Assembly: GCA_947365805.1 (NCBI GenBank)
Contig: CANAZY010000005.1
Location: forward strand, 41,889 to 105,888
Reading direction: 5' to 3'
Length of the DNA stretch: 64,000 nt
From: an uncultured Clostridium sp.
GTDB taxonomy: Bacteria; Bacillota; Clostridia; TANB77; CAG-508
The translations under genes were made by a program, and so were the position numbers. The notes beneath the pieces were generated by a model that worked only from the letters and a program-made list of their open reading frames with translations, was not told where the DNA came from and did no database searches. Below, piece by piece: positions 1 through 15,020 of this stretch (its first letter is position 1; every line of letters begins with the position of its first letter).

Positions 1-510
1 TTCATTTGTAATCCTAATTTTACATTAGAAGATATGTTTTCGCTTTCTTGTTGTGCCATTGCACTTAATACTGTTAGCATTATTTCTCCTGATATTTCTA
101 AAGTATTTATTCTTTCTTCTTCAAAGTAAATAGCAATTCCTTTTTCTTTTAATCCTCTTACATATTTTAGAGTATCAACTGTGTTTCTTCCAAATCTTGA
201 TATTGATTTTGTGATTATCATATCAAATTTGTTTTGTGTTGCATCTTGCATCATTTTCATAAAACCATCTCTTTTGTAATCTAATGTTCCTGTAATTCCT
301 TCATCTGCATAAATGCCAACATATTTCCAATCGCTATTACTTTTTATCTTTTCTTCATAATACTTTAGTTGAGAATTGTAACTGTTTATTTGTTCTTCTT
401 TTTCTGTACTTACTCTTGCATAGGCACATACTCTCAAATTTCCTTTTATCTCTTCTCCTGTTGTTCTATTAATTCGACCTTTTTTCTTCTCTATAACTTG
501 TACTTTCAAA
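1..510 (-). CDS. large serine recombinase, N-terminal resolvase domain only (3' part lies left of the window); TTG start at 510
   Basis: Own translation of minus strand from 510: LKVQVIEKKKGRINR..LRVCAYARVSTEKEEQ..ITKSISRFGRNTVDTLKYVR..SAMAQQESENIS. About two thirds identical by eye to the N-terminus of the 566-aa recombinase at 4471..6171. GAGAGG RBS at 516-521. Confidence 0.85.
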
Positions 511-576
511 ATTAACCTCTCTTTCTCAAGTTTAGAGAATCTTTATGTGCTTATTATACATCAAAAGTTAAATTTT

Positions 577-762
577 TCAAATACCTATGTGAGTTAAATT
601 ATATTCTTGTAAGATATTTTGTTTTAGTTCTAAATATCTCTTTTCTTTAATTAGTCCTGCATTAAATGTTTTGTTTAGTATTGCTATTTTTATACTGCAA
701 TTAAAAATATTTTCATTTAGTTTGATGTTTTTCGTATTATCAAAATTGATTTCGTATAACAT
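577..762 (-). CDS. 61-aa protein encoded immediately upstream of the serine recombinase; function unknown
   Basis: ORF track. AAGGAGG lies 6 nt before the ATG. A frameshifted homologue occupies the same position in the second module (6244..6419). Confidence 0.55.
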   Translation of the reverse strand: MLYEINFDNTKNIKLNENIFNCSIKIAILNKTFNAGLIKEKRYLELKQNILQEYNLTHIGI

Positions 763-804
763 AAAAATCCTCCTTAACTTGAATTAAATTTCAAAAAAGG
801 CAAC

Positions 805-893
805 AGAAAAAGCCAGTCGGCTAGCTTCGACTGACTTAAATATTTTACATTTTTTGATAATACAATTATATTATGGTGTTCTATAAAGTTCAA
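805..893 (-). promoter_or_regulatory. sigma70-type promoter plus leader terminator hairpin in front of the small-ORF/recombinase operon (module 1)
   Basis: Minus strand: -35 TTGAAC (888-893), 17-nt spacer, -10 TATAAT (865-870). This is followed by hairpin CAGTCG/CGACTG (814-833) and GCTTTTTCT, then the RBS of the 61-aa ORF. The same architecture occurs at 6446..6540. Confidence 0.55.
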
Positions 894-950
894 TTCCCAT
901 TTTTTTCCCTTTTTTCTGTTAAAATTGATAAAGTCTTGATTTTTAGGTAA

Positions 951-1194
951 GTACACTAAGTGTACTTGTATAAAATTTTTTTAAATTTATTTTTATAATC
1001 CTTATTTGTGGGTTCACTTAGTGTACTTTTTACTATTTTTTTGAAATCTTTAGTTCACTTGGTGTACTTTATTTTAAATTTCAATCAAATTCAAGTACAC
1101 TTGGTGAACTAATTGCTGTATTTTTATAAAATTTAGTACATTTAGTGAACTTTCACACTCTGATTGGCATTTTTTAGTGGTTCATTGGGTGAAT
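951..1194. repeat. array of six 15-bp iteron-like sites GTWCAC-N3-GTGWAC in both orientations, mostly 41-44 bp apart
   Basis: Sites at 951, 1012, 1053, 1095, 1136 and 1180: gtacactaagtgtac, gttcacttagtgtac, gttcacttggtgtac, gtacacttggtgaac, gtacatttagtgaac, gttcattgggtgaat. A paralogous array lies at 6599..6865. Confidence 0.8.
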
Positions 1195-1195
1195 T

Positions 1196-1311
1196 TCTAC
1201 ATCAAATCTGCTTAAAATTTTTGTTCTTTTATTAACTCTTGAAGGCTTGCCCTTCAATGTGTGTAGGCGATGTGTGAACACTCGCTTTCCTGCCCTCAAT
1301 TTTAATTGAGG
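1196..1311 (+). other. conserved three-hairpin element (candidate small RNA, oriT or single-strand origin), module 1 copy
   Basis: Near-identical to 6866..6980. Hairpins: TTGAAGG/CCTTCAA (1239-1257), GGCGA/TCGCT (1266-1286) and CCTCAATT/AATTGAGG (1294-1311). Hairpin 3 shows a compensatory change in the other copy. Strand assignment is tentative and rests on a G-T wobble that works only on the plus strand. Confidence 0.35.
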
Positions 1312-1338
1312 TAATATAATTTGTTTTTAGTATTTAAG

Positions 1339-2523
1339 CTATATTAAATATCCTTCAATATATATTTCTTTAAATAAATTACTCCACAAATTTGTATTTT
1401 TCCCTATAACATCAGGATTATCTGATTTTTCATCTAATACAATTCCAACTAATCTACTTGACATCTTATCTAGTATAAACTCAATATTTTTAGCCCATTT
1501 ATATTTATGGGTTTGAGAATCAATCTTTATTAATGCTCTAAATGCTCCAACTATTGGATATATCATTCCTTTAGGTACTATATAATGCATTTCTTTTTCA
1601 TCAAATACTGATTTAGACACTATCTCTTTTTCATTATATTTTGAGTATTTTCTACTAGTATATCTCTTACCTGTTTTTTGAGATAATTCCGCAAAATTTG
1701 TTTCTATATATTCCCAAATTTTAAAAATATCTGGTATTATTTCTCTCATATTATTGAGCATTCTTTCTCTGTCTATCTTCTCTATATTAACAAACCTTTT
1801 TAATGTGGCTTCTTTACCTGTATAACATTGTATTGGCTGCTGATCATTAAGAGTTCCATCTATATTTTGTATCGGATATAAAGTTTGACTAAACATACTA
1901 ATTAATGCAATTATTTCTCTTACATCAATTGGATTAACCCCTTCATCATTATAATGCTCATTCATTTTATATGCTATTCTATTACTAAATTTTAATTCTT
2001 TTGTAACATCTTTTAGTACATCAAAACTTTTTTGTAGTTCTTCTATTGACTTTAAATCAACTTGAACTGATGTATTTCTAGCTGAAGCTAATTCGACTGG
2101 AGAATCTATTCCTGTAAAAATCTCTAGAAACACATATCTTTCTTCTTGCATTAGTTGTTTCTCATTCAAATCAAATATCGCTCTTAGAGTATGTCCACCA
2201 TCTATATTTCCATGTATTTCTGGATCCTCTAATTGAATTTGTACTTTTCCATTTTTGTTATCATATGTAACTTTATCCACTGACAAAACTATTCCTCTAT
2301 TTAATTCATGAAAATTTTCATTTTCCTTTAAACTATCCATAATATTTTTTGCTACATTTGTTGTCATTTTTTGCTCTCTAGGATTTGTTTTCATCCATTC
2401 ATTTAATTCTAATGGTATAGTTATAGCTTTAGCATAACAAACATATTTTGCTTTTTCACCCCCTTTATTAATTGGCTCATCCATTTTTTTAAAACTTTTA
2501 GCTTCAAATTCCATTGTTACCAT
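1339..2523 (-). CDS. AIPR-like abortive-infection / DGQHR-type ParB-like nuclease family protein (cargo of module 1)
   Basis: 394-aa ORF. Motif LNRGIVLS...HGNIDGGHTLRAI resembles the AIPR/DndB-type RGI..NG(Q/H)T core. This is recognition from memory; no search was run. Confidence 0.5.
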   Translation of the reverse strand: MVTMEFEAKSFKKMDEPINKGGEKAKYVCYAKAITIPLELNEWMKTNPREQKMTTNVAKNIMDSLKENENFHELNRGIVLSVDKVTYDNKNGKVQIQLEDPEIHGNIDGGHTLRAIFDLNEKQLMQEERYVFLEIFTGIDSPVELASARNTSVQVDLKSIEELQKSFDVLKDVTKELKFSNRIAYKMNEHYNDEGVNPIDVREIIALISMFSQTLYPIQNIDGTLNDQQPIQCYTGKEATLKRFVNIEKIDRERMLNNMREIIPDIFKIWEYIETNFAELSQKTGKRYTSRKYSKYNEKEIVSKSVFDEKEMHYIVPKGMIYPIVGAFRALIKIDSQTHKYKWAKNIEFILDKMSSRLVGIVLDEKSDNPDVIGKNTNLWSNLFKEIYIEGYLI

Positions 2524-2812
2524 AAAAAAACACTCCTTTCATATATTTTCTGTTTTATAACATATGAATAAGGAATGTATCTATATTATTTAATAATTAT
2601 ATTTAATTTAAATTTTCCTTTTTCCACATCTATAAAATCAGATACTGGTAACTTAAATAAGCAAAATCGCTTACAAGCTTATTTATATTTTACATATATA
2701 ATCTTCATTTGTCAACACCTCCAAAAATTTTTTAGTTAAATGTAATTTGCATATACTATAATTACATTTAATGTTGCACATTTAAATGTGGTTAGTTCGT
2801 TTATAAACGCTT

Positions 2813-2841
2813 AAAATCCCTCACACATAGAGGGATTTTTT
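2813..2841. terminator. bidirectional rho-independent terminator
   Basis: AAATCCCTC-acacata-GAGGGATTT flanked by A-run and T-run, downstream of the minus-strand hydrolase gene. Confidence 0.6.
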
Positions 2842-2848
2842 ATTTACT

Positions 2849-2896
2849 TGTCGGAAACTCTCGTAAATTATTGTAAATTTACGAGAGTTTCCGACA
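2849..2896. repeat. perfect 21-bp inverted repeat with 6-nt loop
   Basis: tgtcggaaactctcgtaaatt (2849-2869) / aatttacgagagtttccgaca (2876-2896). No U-tail. Locally GC-richer than its surroundings. Confidence 0.8.
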
Positions 2897-2945
2897 TATT
2901 TAACTTCTATATTACGAATTTTCCTATTTTTTAGTAATATAACCT

Positions 2946-3506
2946 TTATAAATAACTTACTATATCTTCAAATGTATCATATCCACTTTCACTATTGATA
3001 TGTCCTGCATTTGGTATTAATACTTGTTCTGTTGTAATTTTATCTGCAAAATCTTTTTCTACTTCATATTTTACATATGGGTCATTATTTGAATAAAAAC
3101 AAATAATTTCATCTGCATATTGTTTTACATCTTCTAAGTTATTAAAATATATTGTTCTATTTACTGTATCGTATTCTTCATTTATTCCTAAATAATTGTT
3201 AAATCCACATACAAATATTAATTTTTTCACTTTTAATTTATTCTCTACCAAAAATTTGCAAACAAATACTGGTGCAATACTGTGTGCTATTATAGTTGTA
3301 TTTTCATTAATTAATCCTAAATTCAAATAGTATTTTAGTAATTTACTCCAATTTGCATAATTTTGATAACCAACTCCTATTGGAAATTGTGGCACATATA
3401 CTTGTTTTCCATCTGTTGATATAAAATCTTGTAACCAACTAAACCAATTTCCAAATGGACTCCCAAAACTTCCATGTATTATAAAATAATTTACTTGCAT
3501 TTTCAT
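2946..3506 (-). CDS. alpha/beta-fold serine hydrolase, YdeN/RBBP9-like
   Basis: 186 aa. N-terminal FIIHGSFGSP and nucleophile-elbow-like AHSIAP, with size typical of the family. Confidence 0.55.
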   Translation of the reverse strand: MKMQVNYFIIHGSFGSPFGNWFSWLQDFISTDGKQVYVPQFPIGVGYQNYANWSKLLKYYLNLGLINENTTIIAHSIAPVFVCKFLVENKLKVKKLIFVCGFNNYLGINEEYDTVNRTIYFNNLEDVKQYADEIICFYSNNDPYVKYEVEKDFADKITTEQVLIPNAGHINSESGYDTFEDIVSYL

Positions 3507-3521
3507 ACTCCTTTTTTAATA

Positions 3522-3860
3522 TTATAAATCTTCTTCATCAATTAGAGGAATTATATCTATTGCTGGTTCTTCATAAGGATGAACTTCTCTTAATCTTTTT
3601 AATACTCTTTTCACTATATTAATATCGCATCTTGCTTCCAATTTTTCTTCTTCTACAAATTCTAATTTATTTTTTTCTCCAATGTATGGATTAGCATTAC
3701 TTAAAGGTTTAAAAGTTCCTATACACTTTGTAGATATAGTACAATCTGTATAGTTTCCTATAATTCCTGCTCCTTCATCACAAATAGCATTTCTTAATTC
3801 TTCACTATTTTCAGCTGGTACAGTTACAACAATTTTTACTTTTTTAACATCAATATTCAT
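3522..3860 (-). CDS. small NIF3/YqfO C-terminal-domain-like protein
   Basis: 112 aa. The pattern VKIVVTVP..E.LR.AI...GAG.IGNY..C and HPYEEPAIDIIPL is typical of this small domain family. Confidence 0.45.
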   Translation of the reverse strand: MNIDVKKVKIVVTVPAENSEELRNAICDEGAGIIGNYTDCTISTKCIGTFKPLSNANPYIGEKNKLEFVEEEKLEARCDINIVKRVLKRLREVHPYEEPAIDIIPLIDEEDL

Positions 3861-3874
3861 CTTTCTTAATACCT

Positions 3875-4132
3875 CTAACTTTCTTTTAAATATTCTCTTA
3901 TATTATTTGCTAACTCAACATCCATTCTTTTTATTGCTTCTTTTGTTACTCCTACTATATGTGGTGTTACTACTACATTATTTCTTTTTTCATTTAGTAT
4001 TTCCTTATAGTTTTCTACATCAATATCAAGTCCAACATTAAATGTTGGGTTTTCATCTGCATATCTTATTAATTCATTCATATCTACTGTTTCTGCTCTT
4101 GATGTATTTATAAAAGTAGCTGTTTTCTTCAT
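3875..4132 (-). pseudogene. C-terminal about 85 aa of a D-isomer-specific 2-hydroxyacid dehydrogenase; the N-terminal about 230 aa are missing
   Basis: MKKTATFINTSRAETVD...VVVTPHIVGVTKEA matches the C-terminal NAD-domain end (MK..A.lIN.sRG...tPH.g). The upstream frame closes at a TAA four codons before the ATG. It abuts the 3' side of the recombinase at 4471..6171. Confidence 0.7.
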
Positions 4133-4470
4133 TAATCTAATTTTATAAAGATTCTCTATAACTCATTTTAATAAATTCCTTCTATTCCTTGAAATATATA
4201 GCTTTACATCATATCTACTAACCAACACAACCTATACCTGTTATGACTACCATATACACAATCGTAAATTATCTAGTATTTCAAACATTTTGCTCAATTT
4301 TTTAAAATTCCATCTATGTGTTTCCACTTACCACTTAAGCAACTACTTTAACTTTCACAACCAAATTCTGATGTTTTTCTTTACCATATTTGCCTTTTTC
4401 TTCAAAAGTTATAATCTGTGAAACCATATCAAAATCAAGTATTACATATCTTCTTTTAGTTGTAGCACTG

Positions 4471-6171
4471 CTACGCATTCCACATGTGTTGGTTATCGCT
4501 TGTTGCAATATTATTTGCCGCTTGTTTATCGCTCGTAGCAGTAAATTTATCTTTGCAGTTTATCTCTGTTCCATTTTTACATATAAACCTTATTGTATAT
4601 GGATTAATTATTCCATCTTCTAATGTTTCTCCTACGATTACTTTATCTATTAAACATTCAAATATATCTTTATCAAACTTTGGCATTATATCTATATTTT
4701 TAAATAAACTTTTAAACTTGTTTAATCTTAGTTTAATACTTTCTGTTCTATTCGTTTCTTGTAGTAGGCTTTCTATTTTTTGTTCTATTTTGAGCAATTC
4801 TACATTTAAGTTATCAAATTTTTCTGTATATTGTTCTTTATTAATTTTGCCTTCTAAATTTAATTCTAATAGATTAGCAAGTTTTTTGTTTATCTTCTCT
4901 TTGTCTTTTTCTAATTTTACTACTATTGTTTCTATAGTATTTTCTTTTAAAATATTTTCTATCTTTTCTAAAAAGGTTTCTACTACTTTTCTGTTATCAT
5001 TGCAGAGTATTCTATAACCTTGTATAAAACAATCTTCTAATATTTCTTCTGGGATTGCTTTACAATGTGAGCATTCTTCTTTTCCATGTTTTGCTCTTTT
5101 AATACATTGCCATACTACTTTTGCACAATTTCTATTTGCATTCCAATTTCTTCTTGTTAGTAAACTTCCACAAAAACCACAATATAATTTACTACTAAAA
5201 GGATATTTTTTACTGTAGTTATCATTTCTTCTTCCTGTTTCTCTGTTACCTGCTCTTTTGGTTCTTATTTCTTGCACTCTATCAAATAACTCTTTGCTAA
5301 TAATTGGCTCGTGGTGTTCTTTTAAATAATGTTTATCTGCTTCTCCTAAATTGCTTAATCTTTTATGAGATATTGGATCTATTGTAAATGTTTTTCCCAT
5401 TAACACATCTCCAATATATTTTTCATTTTTTAGGATTCCTCTTACAGTTGATTCGCACCATTTTATTGCTCCTTTTGGAGTTTTTATTCCTTTTGCTGTT
5501 AATTCTTTTGCTATTGTACTTGAGCCTACTCCTTCTACATATCTTTCAAACATATATCTTACAATACTTGCCTCATCTTCATTGATTGTTATTTCTTTTG
5601 TTTCAAGGTTGTAATTATATCCATAACAACCATTATATCCAATTAGTTCTCCTCTGTCTTTTTTCATCTTTAACCCTAGTAGGACATGTGAAGATATATT
5701 CTCGCTTTCCTGTTGAGCCATTGCACTTAACAAAGTTAATACTAATTCTCCTTGTCCTGAACCAGTATTAATGTTTTCTTCTTCAAATAAAATTGCTACA
5801 TTTTTCTCTTTTAGCATTCTTACATATTTCAAAGTATCTAATGTGTTTCTAGCAAATCTTGATATAGATTTTGTTAGTATCATATCAATTTTTCCTTCTA
5901 TTGAATCTTGTATCATTTTCATAAAGTTTGTTCTTTTAAAATCTAATGTACCACTTATAGCTTCATCTGCATATATTCCTGCAAATTGCCATTCTGATTT
6001 ACTATTTATTTTTTCATCATAATACTTTAATTGTGATTGATAACTATTTAATTGTTCTTCATTATCTGTGCTTACTCTACAATATGCACATACTCTTAAT
6101 CTCTCCTTTATTGTTGTACCTGTTACTCTGTTGATTCTTCCGTTTGTTTTCTCTATGACTTGAATTTCCAT
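4471..6171 (-). CDS. large serine recombinase (resolvase domain, recombinase/zinc-ribbon domain, coiled coil)
   Basis: 566 aa. Contains VCAYCRVSTDNEEQ (catalytic Ser region), TKSISRFARNTLDTLKYVR and a Cys-rich segment CGFCGS...WQC..., with a K/E-rich coiled-coil tail. Confidence 0.9.
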   Translation of the reverse strand: MEIQVIEKTNGRINRVTGTTIKERLRVCAYCRVSTDNEEQLNSYQSQLKYYDEKINSKSEWQFAGIYADEAISGTLDFKRTNFMKMIQDSIEGKIDMILTKSISRFARNTLDTLKYVRMLKEKNVAILFEEENINTGSGQGELVLTLLSAMAQQESENISSHVLLGLKMKKDRGELIGYNGCYGYNYNLETKEITINEDEASIVRYMFERYVEGVGSSTIAKELTAKGIKTPKGAIKWCESTVRGILKNEKYIGDVLMGKTFTIDPISHKRLSNLGEADKHYLKEHHEPIISKELFDRVQEIRTKRAGNRETGRRNDNYSKKYPFSSKLYCGFCGSLLTRRNWNANRNCAKVVWQCIKRAKHGKEECSHCKAIPEEILEDCFIQGYRILCNDNRKVVETFLEKIENILKENTIETIVVKLEKDKEKINKKLANLLELNLEGKINKEQYTEKFDNLNVELLKIEQKIESLLQETNRTESIKLRLNKFKSLFKNIDIMPKFDKDIFECLIDKVIVGETLEDGIINPYTIRFICKNGTEINCKDKFTATSDKQAANNIATSDNQHMWNA

Positions 6172-6243
6172 TATACCTCCGTTCCGCCTAGAGATAAAAC
6201 TTAATAATTTTATATCATTTTTTAAGTAAAAAGTAAATTGATA

Positions 6244-6419
6244 TTACAAAAGTTTGTAATCTTTTAGGATTTTTCTTTTAATTTCTTGATGTTCCGCTTC
6301 TGTTATTAAGTTTTCTCTAAACAAATTATTTAATAGTGATAATCCATGCTACAATTTAGCATAGTATTATCTTTTAATTGCTTAGAGTTATCTACTTCTA
6401 TTTCATAATCATGTAGCAT
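6244..6419 (-). pseudogene. frameshifted homologue of the 61-aa small ORF of module 1
   Basis: Own translation: MLHDYEIEVDNSKQLKDNTMLNCSMDYHY*. It continues in another frame as GLSLLNNLFRENLITEAEHQEIKRKILKDYKLL*. Compare MLYEINFDNTKNIKLNENIFNCS... at 577..762. This break is not at a CGG codon. Confidence 0.5.
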
Positions 6420-6445
6420 GAAATTGCTCCTTTTCTTTAAATTTG

Positions 6446-6540
6446 AAAAGAAAAAGAGCAGAGAAATTAGTTTTTAATCTAATCTCTTTGCTCTTTCTTT
6501 TTCATGCTATCATTATATTATCGCAGTTTTATAAAATCAA
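6446..6540 (-). promoter_or_regulatory. sigma70-type promoter plus leader terminator hairpin in front of the small-ORF/recombinase operon (module 2)
   Basis: Minus strand: -35 TTGATT (6535-6540), 17-nt spacer, -10 TATAAT (6512-6517). Then a 16-bp hairpin (6455-6494) followed by CTTTTTCTTTTC, then AAAGGAG and the ATG at 6419. Confidence 0.55.
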
Positions 6541-6598
6541 TTCCCTTTTTGTTCCCTCTTTTCTATTTTGGATATAATTTTCATATCTAATTTTATAA

Positions 6599-6865
6599 GT
6601 ACACTAAGTGAACTAATACTTAAATAATCTAAAGCTACAAGTTCACTAAGTGTACTTGAAAATTTTATTTTTTCTTCATATTCACTAAATGAACTTTTTT
6701 TCTAAAAGTTAAGTACACTTGGTGAACTAAATCTAAAATATTTTATTAAACTCAAGTACACTCGGTGAACTTTTGCCTAAAATGAGTGAACTTTTTCAAA
6801 TTTTTAGTTCACTATTTTTAATTTCAACGAAGAATAGCGGGTTTGAGTCAGTTCACCGAGTGAAT
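6599..6865. repeat. array of GTWCAC-N3-GTGWAC iteron-like sites (six full sites and two half sites)
   Basis: Full sites at 6599, 6641, 6680, 6713, 6756 and 6851, with half sites near 6785 and 6806. Same consensus as 951..1194. Confidence 0.8.
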
Positions 6866-6980
6866 TTCTGCATCATATTTGCTTAAAATTTTTGTTTCTT
6901 TATTAACTCTTGAAGGCTTGTCCTTCAATGTGTATAGGCATTGTGTTAAACATGCTTTCCTGCCCTCATTTTAAATGAGG
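6866..6980 (+). other. conserved three-hairpin element, module 2 copy
   Basis: Aligns base for base with 1196..1311. Hairpins at 6910-6928, 6937-6956 and 6964-6980 (CCTCATTT/AAATGAGG). Confidence 0.35.
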
Positions 6981-7054
6981 TATTTTAGGTTTTAATAGTA
7001 CTTATGTCTACTTAATTAAATATACTTATCCTTAAATCCTCTTAGTTGAAAAAG

Positions 7055-7132
7055 AATGTGCTTTTAAAATCAAGTCAAGGTTGTGCGATAGCACATTCAT
7101 TTTAACCTTGACTTGATTTTGTAAAGCACATT
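7055..7132 (-). terminator. long-stem (about 28 bp) terminator of the 9699-to-7172 operon
   Basis: aatgtgcttttaaaatcaagtcaaggtt / aaccttgacttgattttgtaaagcacatt with a 21-nt loop. On the minus strand it is followed by CTTTTTC. Confidence 0.6.
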
Positions 7133-7171
7133 ATAATTAAGATTATGGATTTATATATTAATCGTTTGCAA

Positions 7172-7411
7172 CTAATCTTTAATCTTATATTTTTTCATTA
7201 ATTCTTTTGCTTTTTCAATTCCTTTTTCTGTTATATATGTAGATTTTGCTTTATGCGTACTTCCACCTATTAGTCTTTCATCTTCTAAGATATTTAATAT
7301 ATCAAAATCATATCCTTTCCATGCTCTTTGATATTCTCCATATGGTTCTCTCTCAGTCCATGAAGTTAAATATATTAAAAGTAATGTTAATTCTTTAATT
7401 TGTTCTTCCAT
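7172..7411 (-). CDS. 79-aa hypothetical protein (last gene of a three-gene operon)
   Basis: ORF track. ATGA start/stop overlap with the upstream gene at 7411. Confidence 0.5.
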   Translation of the reverse strand: MEEQIKELTLLLIYLTSWTEREPYGEYQRAWKGYDFDILNILEDERLIGGSTHKAKSTYITEKGIEKAKELMKKYKIKD

Positions 7412-8184
7412 TATTTAATCTCTCTTTCTACAAATTCTATAAATGTTGGAACAGTTTCTAGTAAATATTTATAATCTTTAACTACTAAATATGCTTCTGC
7501 CTCTGACCCCCATGAATATGTTCCTTTATTTTCAATATTATCTATCTTTGCTTTTGTAAATTTAATTTCTTGTTTCAAATATCCTAAAATATATTCATTA
7601 TTTTCTTGTATAGACTTAAGAATTTTTTTAGCTTTTTTATAATCTCCTTTTTTGTAATACATTATAGAAAGTGGGAATAACATAAAAGTAGAATTATCTA
7701 AATAACTATTATATATTTTTTCACATTCTTCAAATCTTTCAAGTACAGCATATAATCCCATAATTAAATATCTTATCCCTTGGTTATCACTCTTACATAG
7801 TTTTAATAGTTCTTCTCCTTGTTTTATTGCTTCAGTATATCTTCCTAATTCCATTAATGTTAACATATAACTATGTTTAGTTCTCATGTATGGTCTTGTT
7901 TCTATTAATCCCCAAAATATTCCTATATTCTCTTTATTGAAAAGGTCTTCTTTTTCTAATTCTGCTTGCTCTTTATCTAATGTTTCTTTGTATCTGCCTA
8001 GTTTCTTTATTGTATTAGTTTCAAATTTTGTAATAAAGTTTTCTGCATCTATATTATTAGGATTTATTTCTAATGCTTGTTTTGCTAGTTTTATTGCCTT
8101 TGATTTTATCGGTTCGTCATACGCTTCAAATAATAAATCATCTGACTGTTCTTCCTTTATAAATTTTTCATCTTCAAAATCCAT
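7411..8184 (-). CDS. TPR-repeat-like protein
   Basis: 257 aa. Repeated helical A/Y/L-rich 34-residue-like units (ELGRYTEAIKQGEELLKL, YYKKGDYKKAKKIL). Confidence 0.5.
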   Translation of the reverse strand: MDFEDEKFIKEEQSDDLLFEAYDEPIKSKAIKLAKQALEINPNNIDAENFITKFETNTIKKLGRYKETLDKEQAELEKEDLFNKENIGIFWGLIETRPYMRTKHSYMLTLMELGRYTEAIKQGEELLKLCKSDNQGIRYLIMGLYAVLERFEECEKIYNSYLDNSTFMLFPLSIMYYKKGDYKKAKKILKSIQENNEYILGYLKQEIKFTKAKIDNIENKGTYSWGSEAEAYLVVKDYKYLLETVPTFIEFVEREIK

Positions 8185-8199
8185 TTTTTACCTCCTTTA

Positions 8200-9699
8200 T
8201 TAATATTTATTTGTTATATATTTTTGATTTTTAGTATTTGGTTTATCTGGTATAGTCATTTGTAATTTTCCACTATCTAATAATGGTCTCATGTATTTCA
8301 AATAAAAGTTTCTTCTGTCTTTTAAATCTAAATATGCCATTATTTCTTTCGTTGTTCTTGGCTCTCTACAAAATTCTAATATTTTATCTTGGTGGGTATC
8401 TTGGTGGGTATCTTGGTGGGTTGCTGTTTGTTTTTTCGTTTCATTTTCAAATCCATCATGCATAAATATTGTTGTAATAAAATAATCTCTGGTCTCATTT
8501 GTTTCAAACTCTGGCTCTTTTGAACCATTATTCTTTAATGCTCTTTTTATTTTAGGAACACCTGTATTTCTACCTTCTGTTAATTTTAATTCTTTTAAAA
8601 ATTCTCCAATTCTACGGTTTCTATATTTTCTTGCTATCATATTTTTATCTTCAATTGATTTTTCGCTTATTGAACGGTCTGGTCCTGGATAGCTTACAAT
8701 ATGGATTCTATCTTCCATTATTCTTACTTCTACTGGTTCTCTTACATCATATCCTCTATGATAAACTGCATTTACTAATGCTTCCTCTATTGCTTGGTAT
8801 GGATAATTAAAAAATCTTACCGCTTCTGCTTGTCCATCTATCTTCAATATTTTTTCTACAATAACAGTATTTTTAATATATGTTAATGCACTCTTTATCA
8901 TACTATCTATTGGTCCTTTAAATATTTGCTCTGTCATATCATCACCTTCTGGACCATTCCTTAAATCTACTACTTCTATTTGCGAATATGGAAAAAATTT
9001 TTGTGGTTCATCATTGAAAAACATTAAGCCTACATTTAGTGGTTTCATATATTCTGGTGTACCATCTATAATTCTCATACTTTTGCATAAATCCATAAAA
9101 TCCATTGTTTCAGATTCTTTTAGTAAATCACTTTTGATTTCATATAAGTAATTTTGAATTAATGGTAATTTCAAATCTCTAATCTCTGCCTCATGGTTCA
9201 TTCTGTCATCAAAAGGTATTGTTCTTGCCATATCATATAATTCTTTTTGTTCTGTCTCTGTTGCTTTTACTGTGCTTGACATTTTTCTTATATAATAGGA
9301 ATATCCTTTTGAAAAGTCTTTATCTAATGTCGTAGGACATTTATATGGTCTTGTTTGTCCTCCGAAACACCATACTACTAGTATATTTTTTTCTTTATAT
9401 CGTGCAACATCTACTATTGGTGTATATGATGGTTGAATTAACTTACATTTTGCTAATAACTCTTTTTGAATTTTATCTATTTCAGATAATTCTAAACCTG
9501 TTATTGGCATTTTAGGTCTTCCATTTTCTTCTTCAACACCAATTAGAATATATCCTCCGCCCCAGTTATCTATATCATTTGCAAATGCACAAATCGTATG
9601 TAATATTGGTTCTGGATTCCAATTTTTCTTTAATTCTAATCTTGCATTTTCTACAATGTTTTCGTTTAATATATTTTCTATACTTGTAGGTAATTTCAT
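8200..9699 (-). CDS. AlbA_2 (Schlafen-like) domain plus HATPase-like putative DNA-binding protein with C-terminal winged helix
   Basis: 499 aa. N-terminal ENARLELKKNW...ICAFANDIDNWGGGYILIGV is the typical AlbA_2 signature. Carries an internal THQD x3 repeat. Confidence 0.55.
   Translation of the reverse strand: MKLPTSIENILNENIVENARLELKKNWNPEPILHTICAFANDIDNWGGGYILIGVEEENGRPKMPITGLELSEIDKIQKELLAKCKLIQPSYTPIVDVARYKEKNILVVWCFGGQTRPYKCPTTLDKDFSKGYSYYIRKMSSTVKATETEQKELYDMARTIPFDDRMNHEAEIRDLKLPLIQNYLYEIKSDLLKESETMDFMDLCKSMRIIDGTPEYMKPLNVGLMFFNDEPQKFFPYSQIEVVDLRNGPEGDDMTEQIFKGPIDSMIKSALTYIKNTVIVEKILKIDGQAEAVRFFNYPYQAIEEALVNAVYHRGYDVREPVEVRIMEDRIHIVSYPGPDRSISEKSIEDKNMIARKYRNRRIGEFLKELKLTEGRNTGVPKIKRALKNNGSKEPEFETNETRDYFITTIFMHDGFENETKKQTATHQDTHQDTHQDKILEFCREPRTTKEIMAYLDLKDRRNFYLKYMRPLLDSGKLQMTIPDKPNTKNQKYITNKY
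8387..8422. repeat. 12-bp tandem repeat x3 inside the CDS (encodes THQDTHQDTHQD)
   Basis: tcttggtgggta repeated at 8387, 8399 and 8411. Confidence 0.85.
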
Positions 9700-9759
9700 T
9701 CTTTCACCGCCCTTATCAATTGTCCAATTTCTTTGGACAATTTAAAATTGTATAAATAT

Positions 9760-11082
9760 TTAAAATGGATCTTCAATCTCAAATTCAATTGGTTCTTGTT
9801 CTAAAAGTTCCAATTGTTCTTCAGATAAATATTTTCTATCTATAACTACACTTAATACAAATTCATTAAAGAAATTATCATTCATTATATAATACCCATT
9901 TACTTTTTCTTTATTTCCATAGCTGTCTTCAATTTTCCATCTCTGTGGTTTATCATTAATTAAATTAACTCCTGTAAATGTCATAACATGATGCATACTA
10001 ATATCGTATAAATTTAATGCTTCTTCTTTTGATAATGTTTTTAAATTTAATGTATCTTCATAATTATACAATCTAGTATCTAATATTCCAGATTTTTTAT
10101 CTCTAAATTTCAAAATATGTGCTCCCATATATACTGGAATATTATCTTTTAGTTGCTTTATTGTTAATTCTTTTAAATCGTCTATTGGTAAATTTAAATA
10201 TTTAACATAAGAGTTTTGATATACATTTCCTAAATATTTCTTTTTATACATTTTGTAATATTCCTTGTTATACATAGGCATATTTGCTATTGTTACAAAA
10301 TTTTCTAATTCCAAATCTAAAAATCTATTTTTAAATTCGATTGGTGTTACATTTTCAATCCTTTTATATTCGCCATTTTTATTTTTATACTCATAATTAA
10401 ATTCTGTTAGTGGTTCTCCTAGTATTTTGCATAATAAAATATAATTTTCTTGTAAAAACTTATTTTTTTCTTCTCTTAATGAATTGATACCTGTTCCATT
10501 TTTCTTTAGATTTAGTAATTCTATAATATCCTTTTTTACTTTTTCAGTATATAAATACTCTACTTTTTCATAGTTTGTACTTTCAACTGCATTTGGATTA
10601 TAAGAATATGGAACTATTCCATATTTATTTATAATTGCTACAAACCATTCCCAGTATCCACCTTCTGAAACAGAATATTTTATAATATTTTCCTTATGAA
10701 GATGATCAAAACTAGTATCTTCTGTATTTATTATATTTTCATAAGCATTATTTGACTTTTCTAATTTATCAAAAAATGCAATATGATTATTAGATAATTC
10801 TAAATCCATAACATTCATATTTAAATTTTTAGCTATATTATGTTTTATTAGATTCAAACCACCATATATCCAACATCTCCAACTATCTTGTTGGTCACAT
10901 CTTTTACTATCTGGTAATTCTATATTAAAAACTGGTTGATTTTCTATTATAATATCTCTATTAATACAAGCATTCTCTAGACCATTTTTAGTTATAGCAT
11001 TTTCTATTATTTTATTAGTTTTATTTGAATTATAAATTTTATTAAATTCTTCTATTTGTTCTAATTTTATTTGATCATCCAT
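9760..11082 (-). CDS. pepC: aminopeptidase C (C1-family bleomycin-hydrolase-like cysteine peptidase)
   Basis: 440 aa. QQDSWRCWIYGGLN active-site Cys context, with length and C-terminus typical of PepC. Confidence 0.8.
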   Translation of the reverse strand: MDDQIKLEQIEEFNKIYNSNKTNKIIENAITKNGLENACINRDIIIENQPVFNIELPDSKRCDQQDSWRCWIYGGLNLIKHNIAKNLNMNVMDLELSNNHIAFFDKLEKSNNAYENIINTEDTSFDHLHKENIIKYSVSEGGYWEWFVAIINKYGIVPYSYNPNAVESTNYEKVEYLYTEKVKKDIIELLNLKKNGTGINSLREEKNKFLQENYILLCKILGEPLTEFNYEYKNKNGEYKRIENVTPIEFKNRFLDLELENFVTIANMPMYNKEYYKMYKKKYLGNVYQNSYVKYLNLPIDDLKELTIKQLKDNIPVYMGAHILKFRDKKSGILDTRLYNYEDTLNLKTLSKEEALNLYDISMHHVMTFTGVNLINDKPQRWKIEDSYGNKEKVNGYYIMNDNFFNEFVLSVVIDRKYLSEEQLELLEQEPIEFEIEDPF

Positions 11083-11143
11083 TTTATCTCCTTCATACTA
11101 TTTTTAATATAAATTCCCATAATGATTTCTCTTATTTTATATT

Positions 11144-11425
11144 CTATACAATCTCTTCGCTATTTATATCAAATGATGGTGTGCATATAATTGCAAATCT
11201 TACTTTACCATCAATGCTATGTTTAGAATTTACAGGAATTAAAACGAAATCACCTTGTTCAACATTATTTTTTTCACCATCAATAGTTACAATTGCATTT
11301 CCATCTAGTATGAAATAATATTTTATACTCTTTCTATTTATAAAAATCCCATGGAATCCATCCAATTCACCTATTACAAAATCCATAGGCATATTTTTTC
11401 CAGCAAACAGGTCTCTTATTTTCAT
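11144..11425 (-). CDS. cupin-domain protein (93 aa)
   Basis: GDFVLIPVNSKHSIDG cupin motif. Start moved to ATG 11425, preceded by AGGAG. The longer track ORF lacks an RBS. Confidence 0.6.
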   Translation of the reverse strand: MKIRDLFAGKNMPMDFVIGELDGFHGIFINRKSIKYYFILDGNAIVTIDGEKNNVEQGDFVLIPVNSKHSIDGKVRFAIICTPSFDINSEEIV

Positions 11426-11720
11426 ATTATCTCCTACACTTCTTTCTTGTGCCATTTTATATTTATAAACCATTCTTCTTCCTCCAATTATATTTTTATT
11501 TATATTATCATAAAAACGCAAAAAAAGAAAGCCTTTTACCAAAGACTTCCAATTTAAGTTTTATCTCCAAACATCATTTATTTTTCTTTATAAAATTATA
11601 CTACTCCTCATACCATATCAACTTCTATCGTTACCTTAATTTTATTATTTTCAACTCTTTTAACCTTATTTTTACCTTTTCTCTCAAAACTAATAAAATC
11701 TTCAAATGCAGTAAATTCAA

Positions 11721-13103
11721 CTATTGTATCGAATCTTTTAGATATAGCACCGAGCAACATTCCACGTGGCTTGTAAATGGGAACATATCTACTGGTTGGA
11801 TTTGTTGTATTTCATATTGTTCTTCAAATTCTTTTAAATCACGTATTAGCGTTGCAGGATTACAACTTATATATACAAATCGTTCTGGTTTTATTTTTAG
11901 TATATTCTCGACTGTATGTGTATCCAATCCTTTCCTTGGTGGGTCTACAAAAACAACATTTGGTTTTGCTTTTTCTTTTTGTAGAACGTCTTCTAAAATT
12001 TGTTCTACATCACCACAATAAAATTCCATATTTTCTATTTTGTTTATTTTTGCATTTTCTTTTGCATCTTGGATTGCTTGGGCTACAATTTCAATTCCAT
12101 AAACTTGTTTTACATATGGTGATGCGAAAGTTCCTATTGTTCCGATTCCACAATATAAATCTAAAACAATATCTTCTTTATTTAAGTTTGCTCCTTTTAT
12201 GGCTGTATTGTACAATTTTTCAGTTTGTACTGGATTAATTTGATAAAAGGATAATGGAGAAATATTAAATGTAAAGTCTCCTAATTTATCTTTTATGTAT
12301 CCATTGCCATATAAGATTTTGTTCTTATCTCCCATAATGACATTGGTGTTTTTTTGATTAATATTTTTTACAATAGTTTTTATTTGTGGGAATTTAGTTT
12401 TTAGTGCTTCCACTAATTTTGCTTCATTTGGAATGGTTTTTTCATTTGTAACAAGGACGCACATCACTTCATTTGTTTTAAGTCCTACTTTTACTACAAT
12501 ATGGCGAATGGCTCCTTTTCCTGTTTTTTCGTTATAAGCCGAAATTTGATTGTGTTTCATAAAATCGATTATGAATTTTGCAATTTCTTGTGATATTGGC
12601 ATTTGAATCGCACAAGAGTCTAATTCGATTATTTCATGTGTTCTTTGTGCATATACACCTGTTATAATTTCTCCGTTTTTGCTATATCCTACAGGATATT
12701 GTGCCTTATTACGATAAAAAAATGGTTTTTCCATCCCTATGGTTTCTTTTACAATTACTTTTTTTGCTAACGTTTTATTAATTAGATTTTGTACCATATC
12801 TCTTTTTAATTTTAGCGTTTCTTCATACTTCATATGTCTTAAATTACAACCACCACATCGTTTATAGGTATTACAATCTGCATTTTGTCTAGCATTAGAA
12901 GAGGTAAGAATCTCTAAGACTTTTCCAAATGCATGTGAGGTATTAACTTTTACAATTAGTATTTTTACCTTTTCGCCTTTCATTGCACCTGGTATAAAAA
13001 CGGTAAAATTTTCAATTTTAGCAATTCCTTCTCCATCACAACCATAATCAATAATGTCTACAACATATTCTCTATTTTTTTGAACTAGTATTTTATTTTC
13101 CAT
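11721..13103 (-). CDS. rlmD: 23S rRNA (uracil-5-)-methyltransferase RumA/RlmD family
   Basis: 460 aa. TRAM-like N-terminus, Cys cluster CNTYKRCGGCNLRHM, SAM motif DLYCGIGTIG and C-terminal VDMFPFTSHVECC. Confidence 0.85.
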   Translation of the reverse strand: MENKILVQKNREYVVDIIDYGCDGEGIAKIENFTVFIPGAMKGEKVKILIVKVNTSHAFGKVLEILTSSNARQNADCNTYKRCGGCNLRHMKYEETLKLKRDMVQNLINKTLAKKVIVKETIGMEKPFFYRNKAQYPVGYSKNGEIITGVYAQRTHEIIELDSCAIQMPISQEIAKFIIDFMKHNQISAYNEKTGKGAIRHIVVKVGLKTNEVMCVLVTNEKTIPNEAKLVEALKTKFPQIKTIVKNINQKNTNVIMGDKNKILYGNGYIKDKLGDFTFNISPLSFYQINPVQTEKLYNTAIKGANLNKEDIVLDLYCGIGTIGTFASPYVKQVYGIEIVAQAIQDAKENAKINKIENMEFYCGDVEQILEDVLQKEKAKPNVVFVDPPRKGLDTHTVENILKIKPERFVYISCNPATLIRDLKEFEEQYEIQQIQPVDMFPFTSHVECCSVLYLKDSIQ

Positions 13104-13112
13104 TCTTTACTC

Positions 13113-13850
13113 CTAATTTTTTCTTTGTAAAATGTTAAAAAGCATGCTTCCATCTCTATAATCTGCAACACAACAAAAGTCTATCATTCCATTTTTATTT
13201 AGTTTTTCATAAATTTGATTATTATAGGATGCTAAATCATCGTTTTCGTTTGGTTGATGAACAAATATCACCTTTCCACCATTGTTATGTACAAATTCCA
13301 TTGCTGGCGCATCTGTATAGCCATCACCTATAAAATAAACATTTCTACAATCCATTTCTTGTCTATTATTCTTTCTTAATATATCACAAATAGCTAATAT
13401 CTTCTTCTCATCTGTCATCACTTCACCAATTCCAGAAATTAATCCACTTTTATTATGTTGCATGAGTGTTCCATAAATCCCTTTAAAATGTTTTGCTGTT
13501 TCAAGATTTTGTAAGAATTCTCTTAATCCTCCAGAAACAATATAATTCTTCGCACATGACATTTCCAAGAAATCATTTATTCCAGGATTATAGGTAATAT
13601 ATTTCTCTCCTTGCATTAATTCTTCATATGTAATCGTTTCCTTTTGCCCTACTAATAAATCATTAAAAAAGCCAAAAAATGTTTCAAGTTCATTTCCAAT
13701 ATGATTTTTTCGATATTCTGTAAGTGCATTTTCTAAATTGGCATTTCTTTCTTCTCCATTATATCCAAATTTTTTAACCCATACCCAAAACTTTGGCCAA
13801 GTTTGTGTTGTTAATGTTCCATCAAAATCAAATATATTTATTGGTTCCAT
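13113..13850 (-). CDS. HAD-superfamily hydrolase
   Basis: FDFDGTLT motif I and GDGYTD motif. Start at 13850 (GGAGG 5 nt upstream) is preferred over 13889. Confidence 0.65.
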   Translation of the reverse strand: MEPINIFDFDGTLTTQTWPKFWVWVKKFGYNGEERNANLENALTEYRKNHIGNELETFFGFFNDLLVGQKETITYEELMQGEKYITYNPGINDFLEMSCAKNYIVSGGLREFLQNLETAKHFKGIYGTLMQHNKSGLISGIGEVMTDEKKILAICDILRKNNRQEMDCRNVYFIGDGYTDAPAMEFVHNNGGKVIFVHQPNENDDLASYNNQIYEKLNKNGMIDFCCVADYRDGSMLFNILQRKN

Positions 13851-14002
13851 ATTAGCCTCCATTCTCTTGTCATTATATACAAATTTCACATAGTTTGCAA
13901 TATAATTATGAAGATTTGATTCTTACAAATTTTAAAAAATTCCCAATTTCTATTGACAACAAAATCACAAATATGCTAAGATATAATCTGTTAATACGAA
14001 AT

Positions 14003-14086
14003 GCGGATGTGGCGGAACTGGTAGACGCGCTGGTCTTAGGAACCAGTGTCAACGACGTGGGGGTTCGAGTCCCTTCATCCGCACCA
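14003..14086 (+). tRNA. tRNA-Leu, anticodon TAG, long variable arm, encoded CCA
   Basis: Acceptor GCGGATG/CATCCGC. Anticodon stem CTGGT/ACCAG with loop CTTAGGA. T-arm GGGGGTTCGAGTCCC. Confidence 0.9.
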
Positions 14087-14370
14087 GTCTGGGTGTTCTT
14101 ATAGGATTTAACGTCTTATAAAAACACTTTTTTTATTATGCCGATAATTTATGAGCGTTACATTTACACCTTTTCTTGTATTTACTGTTACATCTACATT
14201 TGATAGCTTTTTTATATAAAGTTGCTCCCGTATTACATATCGGGAGCATCCGTGGCTGTTGCTCCGCATTGCCACGCATTAATGTATATAACATAAGGAA
14301 AGTTATTGTAACATTTTCAAAAATATAGTATAATTATTAAAATATTTAGTGAGTTACGGAGAAAATTGAT

Positions 14371-14878
14371 ATGAATATTATATATAGAAAAATAAAAGAA
14401 GAAGATAAAGAAACTGTGAATAATCTATATGAGAAACTTTTAGATGATCATGGATGTAATGTAGGTATGGGAAATCGGATATGGATATTGGATTTGGAAT
14501 AAATTATTTAGTCAAGAAAATAGTTATAATGCTTATGTTGCTTCTTTGTCAAATGATTATGGAATAGAAAGTGAAATAGTTGGTTATATAATGTTAGAAT
14601 TAAATAAAAGAGAAAGTTATTCATTTATTCAAGGGTTATTTGTAGAAGAAAGATATAGACATAGAGGGATAGCTAAAAGATTAATAAATGAAGCTGAAAA
14701 TTATTCAAGAAGTATAGGATGTAAAAATATAGAAGCTGAAATAAAAAATTATCTATTCGGATTTTATAACGATTTGGGATTTTCTATGTGTAAAAAGAAA
14801 AATGATTCAACATATTTCTTTTCTAAAAGTTTAGAAAGAATCAAAGAAATAAGCGAAGACAGAGATTTGGAACGATAA
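14371..14878 (+). CDS. GNAT-family N-acetyltransferase, interrupted; needs a +1 shift at CGG 14476-14478
   Basis: N-part MNIIYRKIKEED...VGMGN ends 8 codons after the CGG. The +1 frame gives GYGYWIWNKLF...FVEERYRHRGIAKRLI (GNAT motif A). Confidence 0.6.
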
Positions 14879-14930
14879 TTTTTGATGAAATACATTTGAC
14901 AAAATAAAAAAATGTCTGTATAATAAAGAT

Positions 14931-15020
14931 AGAAAATGAGAGCCACAGAAATGTGTGCTACCATATAAATTATATGTTAAAACACCACAAAGCTTGGCAG
15001 AGCATATGTGGTGCTTTTAT
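14931..15020 (+). ncRNA. candidate antitoxin sRNA of a type I TA locus
   Basis: Promoter TTGACA (14896-14901), 17 nt, TATAAT (14919-14924). Terminator CACCACA/TGTGGTG plus CTTTTATT (14983-15020) is shared with the convergent toxin mRNA. Contains TACCATATA, complementary to the toxin start-codon region. Confidence 0.5.

Follow-up and report, generated by a model that had tools for sequence, protein, structure and literature searches.

Small islands stacked in the 3' end of rumA in an uncultured Clostridium, inserted by large serine recombinases and sharing a conserved non-coding backbone

In a 64,000-nucleotide stretch of DNA from an uncultured Clostridium sp. (assembly GCA_947365805.1), we identified a series of small islands adjoining rumA, the gene for a 23S rRNA (uracil-5-)-methyltransferase. 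The whole stretch, hereafter called the window, corresponds to C5:41889-105888 of contig C5, in a genome of 1.67 Mb with ~27% GC. We consider it probable that large serine recombinases (LSRs) have inserted a stack of small islands into the 3' end of rumA in this region, and that a non-coding backbone common to the islands serves as their control region. As judged from their sequences, the islands are rumA-targeting LSR elements with a swapped-tail architecture of the attachment (att) sites; this is read directly from the aligned junctions, unlike the control role of the backbone, which we infer. The mode of insertion has already been published, and the only undescribed part of the system is the conserved backbone of hairpins and palindromes.

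Integration into rumA and exchange of gene tails

Two islands, E2 (window positions 4476-11768) and E1 (from left of the window to position 4486), carry the recombinase genes REC2 and REC1, respectively. The target gene, the recombinases, the four junctions (X1-X4) and the exchanged 3'-end segments (tails b and c) are located as follows.

11721-13103, minus strand: rumA, encoding a 23S rRNA (uracil-5-)-methyltransferase, the integration target (82% amino acid identity to rumA of the empty-site genome G133)
11758-11768, minus strand: junction X1, rumA/E2 boundary, att core CACGTGGAATG (junction alignment)
11560-11757, minus strand: tail c, left end of E2, a recombinase 3'-end segment completing rumA (high identity over ~245 aligned columns to the REC1 3' end and adjoining sequence)
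4471-6171, minus strand: REC2, LSR of 566 amino acids (Pfam Resolvase, Recombinase and Zn_ribbon_recom)
4476-4486, minus strand: junction X2, E2/E1 boundary at the REC2 end, att core CATGTGGAATG (junction alignment)
4300-4475, minus strand: tail b, left end of E1 (shares homology with the right arm of X4 and with tail b at many loci)
1-509, minus strand: REC1, N-terminal 169 codons within the window (full gene C5:40529-42397, 622 amino acids; Pfam on the in-window part)
C5 ~40701, left of the window: junction X3, inside the REC1 3' end
C5 ~39061, left of the window: junction X4, after an open reading frame (ORF) of 375 amino acids

The same-genus genome G133 represents the empty site, where the distal flank gene stands 540 bp after rumA; this gene is 95% identical to a gene located ~17 kb downstream of rumA in the genome under study. 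The homology with G133 ends at CAYGTGGARTG, 36 nt short of the stop codon of rumA, and the last ~12 codons of rumA in the window come from island sequence. This att core, which includes a GA dinucleotide, has four occurrences on the same strand (X1-X4). It is contained in the rumA 3' end and likewise in that of the recombinase gene, and integration therefore swaps the two tails. The left arms differ at all four junctions and the right arms are pairwise homologous, X1 matching X3 over ~245 nt (tail c) and X2 matching X4 (tail b). Each tail is dual-coding, with a replacement RumA C-terminus in one frame and a conserved recombinase tail of ~55 residues in another, and the rumA and recombinase reading frames are offset by one base. 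For example, tail c encodes ...GAISKRFDTIVEF... in the recombinase frame and CSVLYLKDSIQ* in the rumA frame. The recombinase-tail ORF of tail b (listed as 4335-4508) is out of frame with REC2.

Among the fetched relatives, we found 59 distinct junctions with the same core and shuffled arms, the left arms being rumA or one of four recombinase types and the right arms being tail b, tail c or the native rumA end. These combinatorial junctions are the footprint of a site-specific recombination that joins an attB within rumA with attP sites located in the recombinase genes. The REC1-type genes are in frame with either tail, giving 622 amino acids, and are shortened beside a native rumA end. Lengths of their homologues, which carry all three LSR domains (Resolvase, Recombinase and Zn_ribbon_recom), cluster at 563-591 and 615-633 amino acids; these two classes fit a gain or loss of the ~55-residue tail according to the neighbour. 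REC2 stops five codons past the att core, and REC2-type genes stop five to ten codons past it, never using the tail, in every locus examined. An apparent C-terminal frameshift in REC2 was considered as a sign of decay and rejected, since the same frame relation is present in every REC2-type locus examined.

Counted from rumA, the stack comprises E2 (7.3 kb), E1 (5.7 kb), a 1.6-kb cassette without a recombinase and a tail relic. The cassette, located left of the window between X3 and X4 (C5:39061-40701), consists of tail c and the 375-residue ORF, which has no family match. Being bounded by att cores and devoid of its own recombinase, it is a candidate for mobilisation in trans. The tail relic, of the tail-b kind, lies further to the left, beyond this cassette.

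An earlier note on the same DNA had described two recombinase modules with an identical minus-strand order of non-coding elements and different cargo, and both are present as described. It presented them as adjacent copies of one unit; they are instead separate islands joined at the att junctions of their recombinases. Its more general proposal, small integrative elements in which a conserved cis region adjoins swappable cargo, some of it of the defence type, agrees with the empty site, the att junctions and the varied cargo. The end of the first module was expected left of the window and was traced there, but it lies in the recombinase 3' end rather than near the cargo. Likewise, the cargo does differ between the modules, but cargo and elements extend beyond the limits originally drawn.

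Composition of the conserved backbone

Each island possesses, upstream of its recombinase gene, a hairpin block, a palindrome array, a promoter with a leader terminator and a small ORF.

6866-6980, minus strand: E2 hairpin block with hairpin 1, GGCAGGAAAG, the covarying hairpins 2 and 3 and a conserved A/T-rich run (covariation)
6598-6865, minus strand: E2 palindrome array, four full GTWCAC-N3-GTGWAC sites (6598-6771) and weaker ones (pattern search)
6444-6540, minus strand: E2 promoter TTGATT-17-TATAAT (6540-6512) preceded by GGGAA repeats, and leader terminator at ~6456-6494 (sequence)
6244-6419, minus strand: E2 small ORF of the 58-residue type, disrupted by the loss of 1 nt as compared with intact 58-residue homologues
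1195-1311, minus strand: E1 hairpin block, hairpins at 1311-1294, 1285-1267 and 1257-1239
950-1194, minus strand: E1 palindrome array, five full sites (950-1151) and a degenerate one (1180-1194) (pattern search)
810-912, minus strand: E1 GGGAA-N6-GGGAA, promoter TTGAAC-17-TATAAT (893-865) and leader terminator (837-810) (sequence)
577-762, minus strand: E1 small ORF of 61 residues, conserved (predicted two-helix hairpin, pLDDT 77.8)
553-580, minus strand: second promoter-like site TTGAAA-16-TATAAT between the E1 small ORF and REC1 (conserved in 15 loci)

The earlier note was right that the non-coding blocks of the two islands align at the DNA level; the overall identity is 69% and rises to as much as 87% in the part with the hairpins. 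The two-thirds identity given there for the recombinases was too high, as REC1 and REC2 are 57% identical over their full length; at the DNA level, the overlapping parts of the two genes are 77-78% identical. A small ORF was claimed for both modules and is found in each, but the E2 copy contains the 1-nt deletion, which is private to it. With its small ORF broken, E2 looks partly decayed, and it may be so in fact or may reflect an assembly error.

Hairpins 2 and 3 covary: in an alignment that was fitted to the structure, 12 of their 17 base pairs change on both sides, and the both-side changes amount to 70 cells as compared with 19.6±3.7 in shuffled alignments, none of the 500 shuffles reaching this value and slid controls remaining far lower. 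Individual variants of hairpin 2 favour either strand. In many copies, hairpin 1 is replaced by two direct GTGAAC half-sites.

The palindromes, searched with the pattern GTWCAC-N3-GTGWAC and its reversed version as a control, are predominantly hetero-sites (79%), in which GTTCAC is paired with GTGTAC, and their W positions do not covary. On both grounds, we read them as protein sites and reject the option of small hairpins. The sites are most often 41-43 bp apart, and minor peaks of the spacing are seen near 32, 62 and 72 bp; these distances are approximate multiples of the helical turn, so that the sites share one helix face. In the E1 array, the spacing is 41, 42, 41 and 61 bp and the orientation is >><<x, an order that is recurrent among the arrays.

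In the promoter region, the conserved GGGAA-N6-GGGAA adjoins the -35 element and a terminator follows within ~30 nt downstream. An alignment of 24 copies shows that the leader terminator is built from three unrelated sequences in three lineages, at the same position; in E2 it stands immediately before the ribosome-binding site of the small ORF. The small ORF itself is conserved in two subtypes (58-61 residues) and has a predicted helical-hairpin fold. For its 61-residue version, there was no Pfam or NCBIfam match and no significant fold match in the PDB. A DNA-binding fold was considered for this protein and found no support, the prediction being a two-helix hairpin with no significant PDB match.

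Distribution and genomic contexts of the backbone

Among 200 sampled genomes from 50 genera of the host family, the hairpin block was found in 57 genomes and 26 genera. A search of the GTDB species-genome collection with the 22-nt core of the backbone gave at least 118 stretches, a lower bound, and every listed record is an uncultured Clostridia-type metagenome-assembled genome from human, mouse or chicken gut. The block had no match in PLSDB (72,556 plasmids), INPHARED or IMG/VR. In the Rfam search (cmscan), which covered window positions 1-15000, the block likewise had no match; the terminator hairpins gave only spurious sub-threshold hits of the microRNA type, and the only genuine match was a tRNA at 14003-14083, outside the islands.

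In the window, the palindrome pattern matches nine times, where chance alone would give 0.01 matches. In the whole genome, palindrome arrays are present at three loci only, and the reversed pattern has no match. Downstream genes were counted for those copies, 103 distinct ones, that have 1.5 kb or more of sequence after the block; an LSR follows directly in 50 of them. A common chromosomal repeat not linked to recombinases, the alternative initially set against the integrative-element proposal, does not agree with these counts or with the restriction of the arrays to island loci.

Most of the remaining copies belong to another type of LSR island or to decayed islands, where the array abuts an att relic. 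Approximately 17 copies are in islands inserted in cotJC, which have a different LSR, their own small ORF and the same promoter and leader, with the block in the opposite direction, and which carry ToxIN-like or other cargo between the palindromes. Finally, a few copies belong to elements that encode a tyrosine integrase together with a DnaD-like protein, topoisomerase III and a loader of the IstB-like kind.

The genome under study has an island of the second type on contig C24 (C24:429-8779), with a cotJC-like gene as its insertion site. First comes a divergent LSR of 520 residues with a 70-residue small ORF and the same promoter and leader. Next are an MFS gene, the third hairpin block of this genome (94% identical), a DUF6847 ORF and two palindromes that adjoin the 3' fragment of cotJC; beyond this fragment there are a Fic gene and a further LSR of 521 residues. 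In cotJC-type islands of relatives (L052:7242-8300, L046:8300-9170 and L059), a gene recognised by eye as ToxN/AbiQ-like is cargo between the palindromes. Ahead of it stand a promoter of its own, two or three direct repeats of ~58 nt and a terminator, the layout of a type III toxin-antitoxin system. The possibility that the palindromes form a ToxI-like repeat RNA antitoxin was also considered; this was rejected, as the separate promoter, 58-nt repeats and terminator that precede the ToxN-like gene lie downstream of the palindromes.

In the same-genus genome G192, ORFs resembling those of conjugative elements by eye (ParB-like, relaxase-like, coupling-protein-like and VirB4-like; G192:C1:131600-147000) are located ~15 kb from a tyrosine-integrase element that carries the hairpin block.

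Cargo of the islands

The cargo occupies the interval from the swapped tail to the non-coding block. The ORFs of E1 and E2, except the 440-residue and cupin-like ones, were scanned against Pfam; PADLOC and NCBIfam were also used.

7172-11542, minus strand: E2 cargo span (Pfam, PADLOC, NCBIfam)
11144-11542, minus strand: cupin-like protein, 132 residues (weak NCBIfam match only)
9760-11082, minus strand: peptidase C1-like protein, 440 residues (no PADLOC or NCBIfam match; the Peptidase_C1_2 match belongs to the cargo of a relative)
8200-9699, minus strand: SLFN/AlbA_2, HATPase_c_4 and Fic-like_C protein, 499 residues (Pfam; PADLOC pAgo-associated models)
7411-8184, minus strand: TPR protein, 257 residues (Pfam)
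7172-7411, minus strand: DUF6429 protein, 79 residues (Pfam)
7060-7137, minus strand: long terminator-like hairpin closing the E2 cargo (sequence; recurs on contig C24 and in many other loci)
1339-4132, minus strand: E1 cargo span (Pfam; no PADLOC match)
3875-4132, minus strand: C-terminal fragment of a 2-hydroxyacid dehydrogenase, 85 residues (Pfam)
3522-3860, minus strand: ORF of 112 residues
2946-3506, minus strand: Ser_hydrolase, 186 residues (Pfam)
1339-2523, minus strand: AIPR protein, 394 residues (Pfam AIPR, E 3e-23)

A defence role of this cargo is suggested by sequence matches. DefenseFinder or PADLOC had been suggested in the earlier note as a check of the cargo genes; with PADLOC, the 499-residue SLFN/AlbA_2 protein is the only cargo protein of the two islands with a match (to pAgo-associated models), and the AIPR protein is recognised by Pfam alone. 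No relaxase or mating-pair family was found among the ORFs scanned with Pfam. The ORF at 3875-4132 corresponds only to the C-terminal third of the NAD-binding domain of a D-2-hydroxyacid dehydrogenase, a gene fragment carried as cargo.

In relatives, the ORFs immediately upstream of the block belong to 74 distinct families. These include defence-type proteins (IetS, HerA, LmuB, AbiEii, Old/Gabija-like proteins, PDC candidates, NACHT and KAP NTPases and a DpnII-type nuclease), as well as GNAT, MFS, metallo-beta-lactamase and peptidase proteins and plain metabolic genes. Judged by these families, the cargo is exchangeable and rich in defence genes and is not exclusively defensive. A metagenome contig with a REC1 homologue, one of L239:3986-6286 and L240:2826-5814, has a SIR2-like and HerA (DUF87) pair right after the recombinase tail; the other of these two contigs carries three NUDIX genes and an Apyc1-like protein of the metallo-beta-lactamase fold (Anti-Pycsar Pfam family).

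Elsewhere in the window, the region 18594-26659 encodes a third LSR (542 residues, 18594-20222), a replication-initiator-like helix-turn-helix protein of 146 residues (23667-24107; phrog_270, E 3e-10) and a 583-residue ORF (24908-26659) that is DnaB-helicase-like by eye. This region may represent another integrated element, one without palindromes.

Proposed mechanism

According to the model that we propose, the circular form of an island would contain, in this order, the hairpin block, the palindrome array, the promoter, the leader terminator, the small ORF, the recombinase gene with attP in its 3' end, a tail of ~250 nt and the variable cargo, which leads back to the hairpin block. Recombination at CAYGTGGARTG would exchange the last codons of rumA and of the recombinase gene, leaving each integrated island in the order tail, cargo, backbone and recombinase 5' part, and successive islands would stack. 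REC1-type proteins gain or lose the ~55-residue tail depending on the neighbour, and REC2-type proteins never use it. The oriented sites on one helix face are putative docking sites of a dimeric DNA-binding protein. The leader terminator would throttle the promoter, such that the small helical protein, a possible recombinase cofactor or directionality factor, and the recombinase are made only on a signal. The two covarying hairpins would form in single-stranded nucleic acid.

Alternative functions of the backbone

Several observations weigh against a stack of LSR islands controlled by this backbone. The fit of the covariation alignment to the structure favours covariation, and the strand bias of the hairpins is weak, with 35 G·T versus 18 A·C pairs on the coding-sense strand. 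Transcription of REC1 could also start at another strong promoter, located immediately ahead of this gene, which bypasses the leader terminator. The block is also present in tyrosine-integrase/DnaD-like elements with no LSR nearby, and a control role confined to recombinases is thus not a full explanation. As to the islands themselves, two contigs with close REC1 homologues were checked for circularity and are linear, with no terminal overlap, and the evidence for defence in the cargo of the window consists only of the AIPR match in Pfam and the pAgo-associated match in PADLOC.

A wider role is conceivable, though we hold it to be doubtful: the hairpin block and the phased array could constitute an undescribed portable cis module common to at least three unrelated families of integrative elements in uncultured gut Clostridia, with which islands that possess only a recombinase would use the replication or transfer functions of a helper, or would sense a helper or phage protein that triggers excision. 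If the backbone were indeed a site for a trans-acting helper or a phage sensor, it would explain the spread of recombinase-only islands across many genera. Slightly less probable in our estimation is a helper-dependent replication origin of the excised island, with the palindromes as iterons for a trans-acting initiator (from a phage or from the family of elements with DnaD-like and IstB-like proteins), the A/T-rich run as the unwinding region and the hairpins as a single-strand initiation signal. In the tyrosine-integrase elements, the block is located ~2 kb downstream of the DnaD-like and IstB-like pair, which in G192 lies at C1:107061-108879, and palindromes are found nowhere else in these elements; one class of copies has half-sites on both sides of the hairpin block. 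Arrays of GTTCAC-N3-GTGAAC also occur, in three to five copies with a phasing of ~21-23 bp, in viral contigs of 25-65% GC, although these were picked by the island-derived pattern itself. The IMG/VR contigs in question are L193/L207, L199, L200, L205, L208, L210 and L216; in five of them (L193/L207, L199, L205 and L210), which include several unrelated contigs, arrays of four to five copies phased at ~21 bp, half of the island spacing, lie inside or beside genes matching replication-initiation PHROGs, and in L200 it lies inside an ORF without a family match. A relation of the viral initiators next to these arrays to the DnaD-like protein of the tyrosine-integrase elements was considered and rejected, as the two have no sequence similarity, which counts against the origin. 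The hairpin-block model likewise has no significant match in these viral records, and the block is absent from the viral and plasmid collections searched above. Moreover, E1 and E2 have no initiator gene, no homologue of the DnaD-like family was found in this genome in spite of its three arrays, and with their spacing of 42 bp and mixed orientation the sites would be unusual iterons.

A transfer signal, be it an origin of transfer or a single-strand origin, by which resident conjugative elements mobilise the islands, seems unlikely. It would accord with the wide spread across genera of islands whose scanned ORFs include no relaxase or mating genes, with hairpins that covary without a clear strand preference, as expected of DNA structures, and with the MOBV and MOBP/Q-type relaxases encoded elsewhere in the genome. 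However, the regions upstream of the two Mob_Pre genes of this genome are unlike the block, which a profile search finds at the three known places only; no relaxase gene is consistently near the block, and none of the 72,556 plasmids matched it. We attach equally little probability to an action of the hairpin block as RNA, be it a put/EAR-like cis element for terminator read-through or a small regulatory RNA. The two adjacent covarying stem-loops with conserved unpaired flanks, the slight preponderance of G·T (35) over A·C (18) in the coding-sense reading and the conserved terminator downstream, before the recombinase operon, would suit such a role. On the other hand, there is no Rfam match and no conserved promoter upstream; the 5' flank is of two or more unrelated kinds, a strong terminator stands before many copies of the block, and in the cotJC-type islands the block is directed away from the recombinase operon. 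Very improbable, finally, is a block without a function of its own, conserved as an anchor linked to the recombinase and used as a homology arm for cargo exchange. The block does form a sharp border between variable cargo and conserved backbone, but compensatory changes preserve its stems, the phasing and orientation order of the sites are kept across genera, and the block persists in three unrelated types of elements. A control region of the stacked LSR islands remains the reading that we favour.

Comparison with known systems

The sopC centromere of the F plasmid consists of 43-bp repeats, each with an inverted repeat, and lambda-type origins carry iterons. The island arrays resemble both in iterating short inverted repeats at a fixed multiple of the helical repeat. 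They differ in that the islands lack a ParB-type or initiator gene, the spacers are not conserved and the orientation of the sites is mixed, in a fixed order.

In all streptococcal integrative and conjugative elements (ICEs) with a single serine integrase that are inserted in rumA, the att site is located inside the integrase gene, and the 3' parts of rumA and of the integrase gene are exchanged reciprocally with a change of frame (Ambroset 2016, PMC4701971). In vanG and ICE-r elements, the recombinase gene spans the right end and the target in rumA is GA (Srinivasan 2014, PMC4120198). Since the tail exchange and the GA target are described in these two papers, we regard the insertion mechanism as known. 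The streptococcal ICEs and mobilizable integrative elements (IMEs), vanG, ICE-r and CTn5 of C. difficile share with the islands the rumA 3' end as a target, the att site in the integrase 3' end, the tail exchange and the GA core. Beyond this likeness, which is judged by target, att layout and LSR domains, the islands described here are only 5-7 kb long, have no conjugation or relaxase genes among the scanned ORFs and carry defence-type or miscellaneous cargo, whereas those elements carry resistance genes. In addition, the islands stack as several units, including a recombinase-less cassette, and their backbone of hairpins, palindromes and leader terminator is not described in PMC4701971 or PMC4120198. 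The rumA hotspot, known from the resistance-carrying streptococcal ICEs, thus also serves uncultured gut Clostridia as a stacking site for very small islands, and the defined att core and arms permit automatic delimiting of such islands and of recombinase-less cassettes in metagenome-assembled genomes.

Tandem defence cassettes of the staphylococcal cassette chromosome (SCC) type have been described at rlmH, where they are mobilised by Ccr recombinases (Hossain et al. 2024, PMC11470126); in terms of function, they are the closest counterpart of the islands. Against the CcrC, CcrB and CcrA models of NCBIfam, which have cut-offs of 700-900 bits, the island recombinase REC1 scores 85-135 bits (best 134.7 versus a cut-off of 900). 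SCC elements use rlmH (orfX) as their target, whereas the islands use rumA and have attP inside the recombinase gene. In both SCC/SCCmec and the rumA islands, LSR-driven head-to-tail stacking takes place in the 3' end of an rRNA-methyltransferase gene, anti-phage genes are enriched and recombinase-less cassettes are presumably movable in trans. The stacked rumA islands with their swappable and often anti-phage-type cargo are a parallel to the SCC-like defence cassettes of staphylococci.

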